In this document: positions 23,815-39,749 of the stretch, piece by piece
Position numbering within the stretch: the stretch's first letter is position 1
Layout: the number at the start of each line of letters is the position of its first letter
Source: Escherichia coli
GTDB lineage: Bacteria; Pseudomonadota; Gammaproteobacteria; Enterobacterales; Enterobacteriaceae
DNA: 64,000 nucleotides
NCBI RefSeq assembly: GCF_003018235.1
Contig: NZ_CP027437.1
Strand: one strand, 5' to 3'
Notes under the pieces: model-generated
Seen by the model: only the letters and a program-made list of their open reading frames with translations
The model's database searches: none
Told to the model about the DNA's origin: nothing
Position numbers and translations under genes: made by a program

Positions 23815-23861
23815 ACTGCCCCCTTAGTGCGGGGGCAGAATAGCAGATATTAATCTAACCC

Positions 23862-35694: not shown

Positions 35695-36842
35695 TATTGC
35701 ATTGCTTTATAAGCGGTTACCGCCTCGGATACAACCTCGCTGTTGGCATCAAGACCGGAAATCTGTGCCAGCGCCGCCAGCGGACCTTTGTCAGCGATCA
35801 GTGCTGCCAGTTCCTGAGCCTGCGGATCATCTTCACTGCGGAAGTGCATTGCAGCGGCAATACCTTCAATCAGGTTTTTATGTGGCAGACTATATTCCAG
35901 CGTTCCGAGCAGTGGCTTGATCAGACGGTCGCCAGCACTCAGTTTACGCAGCGGCTGACGGCCTACGCGCTCTACATCATCTTTCAGGTACGGGTTCTCG
36001 AAACGACCGAGGATTTTCCGGATGTACGCCGCATGTTTGTCTGCGTCAAAGCCGTAGCGCTTGATCAATACTGCACCACTTTCTTCCATCGCACCTTTTA
36101 CCACCGCGCGGATTTTCTCGTCGAGAATCGCATCACGAATGGTCTGATGACCCGCCAGTTTTCCGAGGTACGCGGTTATAGCATGACCCGTATTCAGGGT
36201 GAAGAGTTTACGTTCGACAAATGCCATCAGGTTGTCGGTTAACTCCATGCCTGGGATGTTCGGCAGCGCGCCTTTGAACTGGGTTTTATCAACAATCCAT
36301 TCGCTGAATGTTTCTACCGTCACTTCCAGCGGATCGTTGGTTGCAGAAGCCGAAGGCGGCACGATGCGGTCAACGGCGGAATCGACAAAGCCAACGTGTT
36401 CTTCTACCCACGCTTTGGCATCTTCCGGCAGGGCGTTCATCACATGGCCTTTCAGCTGCGTGGTGCCGCGTACCATGTTTTCACAGGCGATAATGTTCAG
36501 CGGGGATTCATTACCTTGTTCTTTACGTTTCACCAGCCCTTTGGCGATTGCCGGGGCAATACGTTCCAGCACAACCGGACCAACGGCGGTAGTGACTAAA
36601 TCAACCAGAGCAATCAGATCAACGACATCATCACCAATGCTGCTGACGGCATTGACGCCGGAAACGGTATCTACCTGCTCGGTTTCACCGACCACATGAA
36701 CCTGATAGCTATGACGGGCATTCAGGGCATCAAGTACCACCTGATTGACATCGGCAAACGTCAGTTGGATACCCGCGTCTGCCAGCAGTTTACCGATAAA
36801 GCCACGACCGATATTACCTGCGCCAAAATGTAATGCTTTCAT
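35694..36842 (-). CDS. mtlD: Mannitol-1-phosphate 5-dehydrogenase
   Basis: ORF track 443 aa reads through intergenic palindromes; true start at ATG 36842 ([20 protein letters not shown], Rossmann) gives 382 aa. Confidence 0.9.
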
Positions 36843-36881
36843 AGTATTAACCTTCATCAATGTTTTTACCCGAGAGGGCTG

Positions 36882-36926
36882 GGGTGAGGCTTTTCCCTCA
36901 CCCAAACCCTCTCCGTGAGGAGAGGG
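36882..36926. repeat. Two adjacent GC-rich perfect hairpins in the mtlA-mtlD intergenic region
   Basis: GGGTGAGG-cttttc-CCTCACCC (36882-36903) and CCCTCTCC-gtga-GGAGAGGG (36907-36926). Confidence 0.5.
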
Positions 36927-36936
36927 TAGGATTGGA

Positions 36937-38850
36937 TTACTTACGACCTGCCAGCAGTTCCAGCACTTCATCCACGCTGGTGGTGTGTGCCAGACGCTCG
37001 ATGACGGATTCATCATCCAGTGCATTGGTCAGGCTGGTGATAACCTGAATGTGCTCGTTGTTACGGGCAGCAATACCAATTACCAGACGGGCAATGTCAT
37101 CTTCTTCTTCACCGAAGCGCACGCCTTCTGGGTACTGGCAGAACACCACGCCCGTTTTCAGTACGCGATCTTTTGCTTCAACCGTACCGTGCGGCACCGC
37201 GATAGACTCACCCAGATAAGTCGGGGTCAGTTTTTCACGATCCAACATCGCCTGAACGTATTCTGGCTCAACGTAACCGCCTTTCACCAGCTGCTCGCCA
37301 GCAAAACGAATCGCTTCTTCTTTGGTTGCCGCTTTGCGACCGAGGAAGATGTTCTCCGCGCCCAGTTTGAACAGGTTAGCACTGGAATCGTCAAAGCTGT
37401 CTTTCAGACTGTCTTTCACTTTTACTTCGTTTTCAGTATGGCGCTGAGCAGCAACCAGACGTTCGGTCAGGCTGGTGTACAGGCCGCTGTCGAGGAAGTT
37501 GGTCAGCGAAATATGCTGTGCCTGCGGAACCTGGCGCATAGCGCGTTCGGTCAGGTCACGGTGAGTGATGACCAGGTCCACATCTGGCGGCAGGTTGTTG
37601 ATCGCGCTGTTAGTAACAGAAATCTGCGACAGACCTGCATCCTGAATTTTCTTACGCAGCACGCCTGCGCCCATCGCACTGGAACCCATACCGGCATCAC
37701 AGGCAACGATGATTTTACGTACGTGGCTCAGGTCGTTAGTCACATCGCCTGCAGACAGCGGAGACGCACCTTTAGACTCAGCTTTCATGTCCTGCATACG
37801 ACGAGTTGCTGCTTCAATATCATCTTCTTCTTTCACTTTGCTGGTTTTCAGCAGAATGGCAGAGACAACGAAGGAGACAGCCATCGCCGCACACACACCC
37901 GCGATGTTAGCGAAATAAGCACCTTTTGGTGTCATCGCCAGTACAGCAAGGATAGAACCCGGAGATGCCGGAGAAACCAGACCACCGCCCAGGATAGTCA
38001 GCGTGAACACGCCAGTCATACCGCCGAGGATAACGGCCAGAATCAGACGCGGATTCATCAGCACATACGGGAAGTAGATTTCGTGGATACCGCCCAGGAA
38101 GTGGATGATTGCCGCACCGCCCGCAGACTGTTTAGCGCTACCACGCCCAAAGAACATGTACGCCAGCAGCACGCCCATACCCGGACCTGGGTTAGCTTCA
38201 ATCAGGAAGAAGATGGATTTACCCAGTTCATGGGACTGCTGAATACCCAGCGGCGAGAAGATACCGTGGTTAATGGCGTTGTTGAGGAACAGGATTTTCG
38301 CCGGTTCAACAAAGATAGACGCCAGCGGCAGCATGTCATGGACAACCATGAAGTTAACGCCCGCAGCCAGCATTTTAGACAGAGCTTCAACAATCGGGCC
38401 AATGCCGAGGAATGCCAGAATAGCGAGGATCATCCCGATGATGCCTGCGGAGAAGTTATTCACCAGCATCTCAAAACCGGATTTGATCTTACCGTCTACC
38501 CAGCGGTCGAAGTGCTTAATGCACCAGCCGCCCAGCGGACCTGCAATCATAGAACCGAGGAACATCGGCATATCTGCGCCGACGATAACGCCCATGGTGG
38601 TGATGGCACCGACTACACCGCCACGTTCGCCGCCTACCAGCTTACCACCGGTATAACCGATCAGCAGCGGCAGGAGATAAGTGATCATCGGCCCGACCAG
38701 CTTCGCCAGCGTTTCGTTCGGTAACCACCCTGTTGGAATAAATAACGCGGTGATGATACCCCACGCGATAAACGCGCCGATATTTGGCATCACCATGTTG
38801 CTGAGGAAACGACCAAAGCTTTGCACTTTGATCTTAATATCGGATGACAT
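36937..38850 (-). CDS. mtlA: PTS mannitol-specific EIICBA component
   Basis: 637 aa; N-terminal membrane EIIC, then EIIB and EIIA domains; upstream of mtlD-mtlR. Confidence 0.9.
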
Positions 38851-39110
38851 AAAAACACCCCTTCTTATGTTTGCTGTCGCGCAGGCTGGAAGCCCGAGGT
38901 TTTTTGTTAATGTGGCGGCAGAGGTAGCCGGACCTTGTAGATACTGCGAAATCTGGCACTGAATCGGTTAACTGTCCAGTCGACGGCCTTTTGTGTGATA
39001 TCAGTCACATAAATATAGGGGGTAGAGAGGTAATTGACGTGATGCTCATCACAAAACGACTGTGTAAAAAAGCAACAAGGCGGCGATTTTCGCTAAAAAT
39101 GGCATTTAAA

Positions 39111-39126
39111 TGTGAGTAATGTCACA
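39111..39126. promoter_or_regulatory. CRP binding site (perfect TGTGA-N6-TCACA) in the mtlA upstream region
   Basis: TGTGAgtaatgTCACA, about 260 bp upstream of the mtlA start. Confidence 0.55.
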
Positions 39127-39154
39127 TTTTTGTTTTGTTAGTTTGTTGAATCTT

Positions 39155-39170
39155 TGTGATCTGAATCACA
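39155..39170. promoter_or_regulatory. Second CRP binding site (perfect TGTGA-N6-TCACA) in the mtlA upstream region
   Basis: TGTGAtctgaaTCACA; a third weaker half-site, TGTGAtctgcaGCATG, lies at 39198-39213. Confidence 0.55.
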
Positions 39171-39386
39171 AGATATTTTCTTACGGCGTTCACCTGATGT
39201 GATCTGCAGCATGTTATGCCTTCGTCATAAAATCGTTATGTAACTAAGCAACTCATCACCTCTAAAAATTATTCTTTGGTGTTATGGCGAGAATCGCGAA
39301 CCCGAATTATTGTCAAAATATCAGCCTGACTCCCTTCTGGCTGCCAGCCAAAAAACAACACCGATAAACGTGAATCCGAGGCAGAT

Positions 39387-39749
39387 ATGTTTCTAAACTA
39401 TTTCGCGTTGGGAGTGCTGATCTTCGTCTTTCTGGTGATTTTTTATGGAATCATCGCGATACATGACATCCCTTATCTGATTGCCAAAAAGCGCAACCAT
39501 CCCCATGCCGACGCTATTCATACGGCGGGCTGGGTGAGCCTGTTTACTCTACATGTTATCTGGCCGTTCCTGTGGATCTGGGCGACGCTCTATCAACCGG
39601 AGCGCGGCTGGGGCATGCAGTCACATGTTGCGTCGCAAGAGAAAGCGACTGACCCGGAAATCGCCGCACTTTCTGACCGAATTTCCCGGCTGGAGCACCA
39701 ACTCGCCGCCGAGAAAAAGACTGACTATTCCACGTTCCCGGAGATCTAA
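39387..39749 (+). CDS. yibI: Small inner membrane protein YibI (DUF3302)
   Basis: 120 aa, N-terminal TM helices; divergent from mtlA and followed 2 bp later by yibH. Confidence 0.75.

Follow-up and report, generated by a model that had tools for sequence, protein, structure and literature searches.

The mtlADR operon of Escherichia coli carries G+C-rich hairpins in the spacer between mtlA and mtlD, which raises the question of what these hairpins are and what they do to the mtl transcript. A sequence-only reading of the window (i.e., the whole 64,000-nt stretch of contig NZ_CP027437.1 analyzed here) had described them as two perfect palindromes that fill the spacer inside the operon transcript, of a kind that usually acts as mRNA stabilizers or partial terminators. 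Judged by sequence and predicted structure, the hairpins form the core of a single palindromic element of 60 nt, a compact inverted pair of the BoxC/PIT/TMECO repeat family that is truncated on its right side. The reading that we favor, with a probability of roughly 0.55, is that an ancient BoxC-type copy was fixed before mtlD, where it would work as an RNA structure inside the transcript and have a post-transcriptional role, and would not be a terminator.

The mtl region of the window is 100% identical to that of E. coli strain 1190, and the mtlD protein annotated in strain 1190 and K-12 starts with MKALHFGAG (Table 1). In the ORF track, mtlD reaches position 37025 and has 443 instead of 382 amino acids. 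The sequence-only reading had called this N-terminal extension of 61 codons spurious, with good reason: it is an annotation artefact that results from the palindromes in the spacer. As a coding sequence, the extension was rejected, given that the spacer lengths differ by non-multiples of three and that the upstream in-frame ATG is not conserved. An in-frame ATG (AUGAAGGUUAAUACUAUG; 36855-36857, - strand) is found five codons 5' of the mtlD start; the upstream in-frame ATG position is TTG in Klebsiella and is missing in Cedecea-type leaders. A weak A/U hairpin is also predicted at 36846-36861, with the mtlD Shine-Dalgarno sequence GAAGG inside its loop. Elsewhere at this locus, the interval between lldD and mtlR is ~6 kb longer in the window than in K-12, and a 1724-aa ORF between the two genes (27777-32951, - strand) encodes a trimeric autotransporter adhesin with an ESPR signal, a YadA head, a stalk and an anchor. 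An expressed cis-antisense RNA to mtlA has been reported in E. coli from genomic SELEX for Hfq-binding RNAs (PMC2887942).

Both perfect 8-bp palindromes were found in the spacer where they had been described. In the first, GGGTGAGG (36882-36889) pairs with CCTCACCC (36896-36903) around a 6-nt loop. In the second, CCCTCTCC (36907-36914) pairs with GGAGAGGG (36919-36926) around a 4-nt loop, and the stem has 9 bp if the flanking A/T is counted. Their combined cover is only ~46 of the 94 nt, so that they do not fill the spacer as had been claimed. The sequence-only reading had also overlooked a third half-site, GAGAGGG (36872-36878), which is complementary to CCCTCTC (36907-36913), produces an 18-nt inverted repeat of 89% complementarity around the GGGTGAGG hairpin and allows a long-hairpin fold. 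On the mtl mRNA (- strand), the blocks are ordered a'-a-b-b'-a'-GGG, and the transcript reads ACCCUCUCC-UCAC-GGAGAGGGU-UU-GGGUGAGGG-AAAAG-CCUCACCC-CAG-CCCUCUC-GGG. The 3' a' arm has two possible partners, namely block a, which gives the long hairpin, and, for its CCC only, the next GGG, which gives a mini-hairpin (H3).

Table 1. Features of the mtlA-mtlD region in the window
Feature	Position	Strand	Remarks
mtlA	36937-38850	-	ORF track; annotated in strain 1190
mtlA stop codon (TAA)	36937-36939	-	ORF 36937-38850; annotated in strain 1190
mtlA-mtlD spacer	36843-36936	-	94 nt
Whole BoxC-type element	36868-36929	-	limits from covariance model R1
5' a' arm of H1 (ACCCUCUCC)	36919-36927	-	inverted repeat, folds
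CCCTCTCC core of 5' a' arm	36919-36926	-	inferred deletion junction of the short allele, from alignment with long alleles
H1 loop (UCAC)	36915-36918	-	varies between genera in sequence and length (3-8 nt)
Block a (GGAGAGGGU)	36906-36914	-	alternative partners: 5' a' arm in H1, 3' a' arm in the long hairpin
Block b (GGGUGAGGG), 5' arm of H2	36895-36903	-	inverted repeat, folds
Block b' (CCUCACCC), 3' arm of H2	36882-36889	-	five H2 pairs changed on both sides
3' a' arm (CCCUCUC)	36872-36878	-	inverted repeat; in MFE fold
GGG, 3' arm of H3	36869-36871	-	leftover of the right-hand unit's a block, from alignment with K-12 BoxC pairs
A/U-rich mtlD leader (UAAAAACAUUGAUGAAGGUUAAUACU)	36843-36868	-	Shine-Dalgarno GAAGG at 36851-36855; length nearly invariant between genera
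True mtlD start codon	36840-36842	-	annotation in strain 1190 and K-12
mtlD	35694-36842	-	annotated in strain 1190 and K-12
mtlR	35107-35694	-	third gene of the mtl operon

RNA folding predicted a structure of -40.2 kcal/mol for the sense RNA, compared to -25.5 ± 3.0 kcal/mol for its shuffles (z = -4.8), none of 200 shuffles being as good, and the composite palindrome pattern has 0.00 expected occurrences in shuffles of the window. The placement of the hairpins within the mtlADR operon transcript also stands. Constrained folding gave nearly the same predicted energy for three hairpins (H1 = a'/a, H2 = b/b' and H3 = CCC/GGG; -40.1 kcal/mol) and for one long hairpin (a-b with b'-a'; -40.2 kcal/mol) in the window, and the median ddG between the two folds is +0.4 kcal/mol across sequences. 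This near-equality follows for the most part from the way in which the palindromic pair is built, and the tandem palindromes of Pantoea have the same alternative.

Classification of the palindromes by alignment with K-12 loci and by a covariance model led to BoxC/PIT/TMECO, a family found in E. coli and other Proteobacteria, in which PIT stands for potential intrastrand triplex (Bachellier; Hoyne & Maher, 2000; PMC4666352; PMC2267715). Published sources count 22-32 BoxC copies in K-12, 22 sequences being given by Petrillo et al. (2008, PMC2267715), while Holder et al. (2015, PMC4666352) reported 23 K-12 copies of the motif CCCTCNCCC-N3-6-GGGNGAGGG-N3-GGGNGAGGG, five pairs of which are inverted 'type A + type B' dimers. 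In the K-12 BoxC loci that we fetched, the dimers read a'-a-b-[16-27 nt]-b'-a'-loop-a. Alignment of the mtl element with four K-12 pairs (alignment A3) revealed a common block order and invariant a, b, b' and a'. Like other members of the family, the mtl element is intergenic and consists of three blocks (C-rich, GGGAGAGGG-like and GGGTGAGGG) with similar loops, and its right half, CCTCACCCC-AG-CCCTC, is identical to that of the K-12 fepB-entC copy. An inverted pairing of type A (TTA loop) with type B (CCG/CTG loop) is also found, though the right unit is truncated: the loop of the left unit is TTT (TTA or CTA in other genera), and the right unit has CAG, the complement of CTG, as in fepB-entC. 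The differences lie in the completeness and spacing of the units. While nothing is missing from the left unit (a'-loop-a-TTT-b), truncation has reduced the right one (b'-CAG-a') to CCCTCTC-GGG, and the central spacer is 5 nt long compared to 16-27 nt in the K-12 pairs. With a covariance model (R1) for which 13 mtl elements from other genera, and none from E. coli, were used, the scores were 65.5 bits (- strand; E = 6e-15) and 26.9 bits (+ strand) for the window copy and 44-60 bits (E from 1e-9 to 1e-13) for the K-12 BoxC pairs. Thus, A3 and R1 both place the mtl element with the accepted family members in sequence and structure at the profile level.

The mtl element is a member of an already known repeat family, but this copy is absent from two published K-12 inventories: it is found neither among the 23 copies in Table 1 of PMC4666352 nor among the 22 BoxC sequences of PMC2267715. 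The window copy, which reads CCCTCTCC-TCAC-GGAGAGGG-TTT-GGGTGAGGG, does not match the strict form of the family motif given above when at most one mismatched base pair is allowed. In E. coli, the first two blocks of the mtl element are 8 nt rather than the 9 nt of the strict pattern, and 9-nt blocks, if forced, leave a T/C mismatch and a 2-nt loop. The short blocks and the failed match account for the absence of the mtl copy from Table 1 of PMC4666352. The strict pattern is matched by the orthologues in most other genera (e.g., Leclercia and Enterobacter). The mtl copy is the only BoxC-type copy within the 64-kb window, and BLAST of E. coli genomes with the whole 67-nt unit returned no locus besides mtl, which is attributed to short diverged copies falling below the E-value limit in a 28-Gb database. 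Because BLAST is blind to such short copies, family membership was demonstrated with the fetched K-12 BoxC loci and the covariance model. In an Rfam scan at a permissive E-value, all matches were at chance level and none reached the gathering score of its family, the best being mir-2954 (19 bits vs. 96).

In addition to the mtl elements, R1 matched sequences at 24-34 bits ~1 kb downstream of mtlD-mtlR in Enterobacter (L036, 3790-3844; L034, 3721-3780; L035, 3806-3902; and L054, 3672-3738), which presumably are ordinary BoxC copies of those genomes. The motif GGGAGAGGGNNNGGGTGAGGG was found in more than 120 stretches of viral-classified contigs in IMG/VR (L090-L169, e.g., L114-L116 and L161-L163), with 7-9 copies per contig in some, and the BoxC pair query also matched replicons of Azospirillum and Rhizobium in a plasmid collection. 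The published claim that mobile elements do not carry the motif may have to be checked again, although host flanks of proviruses could explain the viral matches.

In E. coli, the mtl element is present in 5404 of 5426 genomes, 4827 of which carry it at 99% identity or more, and the presence/absence variability between strains that is usual for BoxC copies was not found for the mtl copy. This is in contrast to the K-12 lldD-trmL BoxC pair (~165 bp, TMECO 17+18), in place of which the window has ~15 nt (23848-23862; the K-12 equivalent is L005, 519-715). Only 2715 of 5426 E. coli genomes have 80% or more of that K-12 spacer, the others having one unit or none. Only the mtlA-side flank of the mtlA-mtlD spacer is variable in E. 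coli. The spacer is 94 nt in the window, 229 nt in K-12 and 319 or 419 nt in others, which makes at least four alleles. The extra DNA of the long alleles is located between the mtlA stop codon and the element and comprises an additional hairpin (CCCACCCTCTCC-ACAT-GGAGAAGGTGGG) and, after it, one to three BIMEs with CTAC/GTAG-flanked REP palindromes; the alleles of K-12, EcN and ZH063 have one to three REP pairs directly 5' of the element. REP sequences are imperfect palindromes of 30-40 nt with a conserved GTAG (CTAC) at the foot and usually occur as inverted pairs (PMC3333891), and no such palindrome is found in 36843-36936 of the window.

In an even sample of 60 from 5405 matching E. coli genomes, the K-12 type spacer (+135 nt) was found in 39, the short 94-nt spacer in 10 (~17%; O157:H7 and O103:H2 included), a longer spacer in 10 and a partial match only in one. 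The window sequence corresponds to the long alleles minus everything between two CCCTCTCC direct repeats. Given that the junction falls inside CCCTCTCC, that the short allele has the 5' flank of the upstream hairpin arm in the long alleles and that E. albertii carries the long form, the short allele is most simply explained as a derived deletion. From these alignments, the 94-nt allele is probably a derived minority allele of E. coli, in which the extra hairpin and BIME were deleted between the CCCTCTCC repeats. For annotation, the analysis of the element accounts for the length polymorphism of the mtlA-mtlD spacer as well as for the spurious mtlD extension.

For comparison across genera, a scan with MtlD, restricted to one genome per species, listed 80 Enterobacterales loci, with Yersiniaceae and Hafniaceae outside the set; the mtlA stop codon was located in each and the spacers were extracted. 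The element is present in the spacers of 66 of the 80 loci listed, from dozens of Enterobacteriaceae genera that include Citrobacter, Salmonella, Klebsiella, Enterobacter, Kosakonia, Leclercia, Lelliottia, Yokenella, Pluralibacter, Cedecea, Buttiauxella, Siccibacter, Franconibacter, Mangrovibacter and Atlantibacter, and the covariance model recovered all 66 carriers at 46-95 bits. The copy of Salmonella has one unpaired change in block b. The remaining 14 loci, which belong to Pantoea, Mixta, a few Enterobacter-labelled contigs with Pantoea-type spacers and two Cedecea-like MAGs, have other G+C-rich hairpins instead. Among the 66 sequences, the distance from the end of the element to the mtlD ATG varies from 27 to 35 nt (median 29), and that from the mtlA stop codon to H1 from 7 to 171 nt (9 nt in the window). 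All lineage-specific insertions (REP, BIME and ERIC-like) are on the mtlA side of the element, with REP-like hairpins in Citrobacter and Salmonella and BIMEs in Escherichia. An insertion of ~125 nt after the mtlA stop codon in C. werkmanii/youngae and RIT691 (L017, L019 and L055), which reads ...GTGAATCCCCAGGAGC.TAC.T.AGTA.GTGACTGGGGTGAGCGAGG..., looks like an ERIC/IRU element. The few nucleotides between the mtlA stop codon and H1 are a hotspot for different repeat families.

Mean pairwise identity is 0.85-0.96 for the stem blocks of the element (0.955 for block a in 66 sequences) and 0.39 for its central spacer. For positions 1, 2 and 3 of the mtlD codons, it is 0.94, 0.98 and 0.58, respectively, and the conservation of the stems is comparable to that of codon positions 1-2. 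The spacers of Erwiniaceae (Pantoea and Mixta) have unrelated G+C-rich palindromes (GGGGCGGGC...GCCCGCCC), single or twice in tandem (L076, 1407-1500; L089, 1434-1500; and the spacers of L083 and L087), and the two Cedecea-like MAGs retain a single H1-like hairpin (CCCTCCCTG/CAGGGAGGG). That Erwiniaceae have different hairpins in the same spacer makes a strong hairpin at this site a conserved theme, which indirectly supports a role in setting an expression ratio.

The alignments were also examined for pairing on the sense RNA. For the three-hairpin model, 95.8% of the cells are paired and seven pairs are changed on both sides in the alignment fitted with the covariance model, which leans towards the modelled structure; 0 of 500 shuffles reached the observed value and slid controls gave 47-68%, the shuffles ignoring phylogeny and the cells not being independent events. 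H3 is 97.9% paired in the same model-fitted alignment. For the long hairpin, a plain MAFFT alignment gave 91.5% paired cells and seven pairs changed on both sides, and the internal triplet TTA/CAG is changed to TTC/GAA in Klebsiella oxytoca, to TTC/GAG, and to CCA/TGG in Siccibacter. Because the 5' arm of H1 is out of register in MAFFT alignment A2, this hairpin was judged by the model-fitted alignment and by folding each sequence, two approaches that are biased towards pairing. When folded one by one, 65 of 66 sequences formed H1, with loops of 3-8 nt that have no conserved sequence. On the sense strand, the ratio of G·U to A·C cells is 32:2 in H2 and 16:4 in the outer stem, and G-to-A changes in block b are accompanied by a matching U in b'. 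The toleration of G·U with almost no A·C fits pairing of the sense RNA, not of duplex DNA, a cruciform or an antisense RNA. This comparative pattern of stem conservation with compensatory and G·U changes favors selection on RNA structure. It should be noted that a constraint on sequence throughout the family, such as a binding factor, rather than RNA pairing could explain why a and a' are invariant.

That the mtl element is a functionless (selfish or neutral) BoxC copy, conserved by gene conversion or a low mutation rate and without a role in mtl expression, is unlikely but is the rival that we take most seriously. The family is dispersed and no function has been assigned to it despite tests, other copies such as the lldD-trmL pair come and go, and a and a' hold the family consensus, all of which would be expected of such a copy. 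Neutrality does not, however, account for the retention of the element in Salmonella, from which TMECO copies were reported to be absent (Holder et al., PMC4666352), or for the lineage-specific compensatory changes that leave the consensus and yet pair (e.g., GGGAAAGGG/CTCTTTCCC and GGGTGAAAGG/CCTTTCACCC). The constant distance to the mtlD ATG while the mtlA side takes insertions and the stem conservation equal to that of codon positions 1-2 also argue against it.

The strand asymmetry bears on whether the element acts as DNA instead, i.e., as an intrastrand purine-motif triplex, a G-quadruplex or a cruciform that affects replication, recombination or genome stability. In vitro, TMECO oligonucleotides fold into intrastrand triplexes, and hypervariability between E. 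coli strains is known for TMECO loci, while the triplex was not detected in vivo or in duplex DNA (PMC4666352). Consistent with a DNA-level structure are the length polymorphism of the spacer, with its short allele that looks like a repeat-mediated deletion, and the sequence GGGAGAGGGTTAGGGTGAGGG, which is present in many genera and is a canonical G4 motif. As selected features, both structures were nevertheless rejected: only 1 of 29 block b changes is compatible with the triplex, vs. 14 of 29 that keep Watson-Crick or G·U pairing with b', and no more than 37 of 66 sequences contain the canonical G4 motif, which is missing in E. coli, Salmonella and many Citrobacter. Moreover, the toleration of G·U but not of A·C is not predicted by a role as duplex DNA or cruciform, and we consider a DNA-level role improbable.

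Equally improbable in our view is a bistable RNA switch that couples translation of mtlA to the fate of the mtlD segment. In such a switch, H1 would form first, a ribosome terminating at the mtlA stop codon 9 nt upstream would open it, and the freed block a would re-pair with the 3' a' arm to form the long hairpin. Both pairings of block a are kept (97.6% paired for H1, and pairing of the outer stem in 60-66 of 66 sequences), the two folds are predicted to be nearly isoenergetic, H1 begins 7-14 nt past the stop codon in at least 26 genera, and a three-way constraint would explain why a and a' are nearly invariant while b and b' covary. The near-degeneracy, however, follows automatically from the palindromic pair architecture, as the tandem palindromes of Pantoea illustrate. 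Many lineages, including most E. coli, have 30-170 nt of inserted repeats between the stop codon and H1, 6 of 66 sequences have an interrupted long outer stem, and no downstream effect on the mtlD ribosome-binding site (RBS) is predicted.

The weakest of the rivals, that the hairpins are a partial intrinsic terminator or attenuator that passes only a fraction of RNA polymerases from mtlA into mtlD, is very improbable: the element resembles Rho-independent terminators in being a stable G+C-rich hairpin 3' of a stop codon, between two cistrons, and the Erwiniaceae spacer holds different hairpins, one of which, in Mixta, is followed by TTCGTCTTTT and has a terminator-like score, but neither hairpin of the window is followed by a U-tract (they are followed by CAGCCC... 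and GGGUAAAAAC), an intrinsic terminator scan of 35000-39500 returned no match, the Pantoea rodasii spacer site is also negative in the scan, and the family was reported to show no promoter and no terminator activity (Hoyne & Maher, as recounted in PMC4666352). The absence of a U-tract means that the element is not an intrinsic terminator, and the partial-terminator part of the sequence-only reading found no support; its stabilizer part is plausible. Two further candidates were also rejected. A simple role as an 'insulator' that keeps the mtlD RBS open is not supported, as the predicted accessibility of the RBS is 0.49 with the intact and 0.51 with a shuffled element and is the same across four spacer alleles. 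A riboswitch-like aptamer is unlikely, given that the loops and the central spacer are variable and only the stems are conserved.

A structure for intercistronic mRNA stability or processing is the most likely role of the mtl element, as far as comparative and predicted features indicate. In the proposed course of events, a BoxC-type copy would have been fixed in the mtlA-mtlD spacer before the sampled Enterobacteriaceae genera diverged and held ~29 nt upstream of the mtlD start codon since then. Transcribed within the mtlADR mRNA, it would fold into very stable G+C-rich stem-loops, either H1, H2 and H3 or the isoenergetic long hairpin, and thereby mark the boundary between the mtlA and the mtlD-mtlR segments. 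The structure could be a barrier to 3'-5' exonucleases for the mtlA segment and/or a structured end that adjoins an A/U-rich single-stranded stretch open to an endonuclease cut, after which the mtlA and mtlD-mtlR segments would decay or be expressed at different rates. A conserved A/U-rich stretch, UAAAAACAUUGAUGAAGG, is found beside the element and resembles the preferred sites of RNase E, which are single-stranded and contain uridine (PMC5222698). No usable record of 3' ends, of sites for RNase E or RNase III or of half-lives at mtlA-mtlD was found in the literature searched.

Two kinds of known systems are comparable to the proposed one. REP/BIME sequences are G+C-rich extragenic palindromes in operon transcripts that, like the mtl element, have no U-tract and could block 3'-5' exonucleases, and they share the mtlA-mtlD spacer with it in K-12 and most E. 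coli. The paradigm of REP/BIME as an intercistronic mRNA stabilizer is malE-malF (Newbury et al., 1987). REP/BIME belong, however, to a different sequence family, and their copy number in the spacer varies between strains, whereas the BoxC-type element is constant. If the proposed role holds, the mtl element would also resemble the protective structures of Dar & Sorek (2018, PMC5927463), i.e., conserved stem-loops bounding segments of different stability in polycistronic mRNAs, although those were mapped by Term-seq and are mostly within coding regions. In PMC5927463, mtlADR is found only in the operon list, without a reported protective element.

The mtl copy also differs from typical BoxC copies, which are strain-variable, in being positionally fixed across genera and near-universal in E. 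coli. It is conceivable, though doubtful, that this BoxC copy was exapted as a cis-acting RNA device, a bistable stem-loop module 29 nt upstream of mtlD that would set the ratio of MtlA to MtlD (and MtlR) via processing, segment-specific decay or sensing of mtlA translation. The mtl copy also bears on the balance between MtlA and MtlD, given that mannitol-1-phosphate has been reported to be toxic if MtlD is limiting (PMC11784389).

In the ~30 years since BoxC/PIT/TMECO repeats became known, no function has been assigned to them and they have been described mainly as unstable DNA; in earlier tests, family members had no effect on transcription or reverse transcription. The mtl copy behaves differently and is a concrete, easily mutated test case for whether such repeats can work as RNA elements. 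If its exaptation is true, it would offer a first functional handle on a family that has been without a known function since the 1990s.
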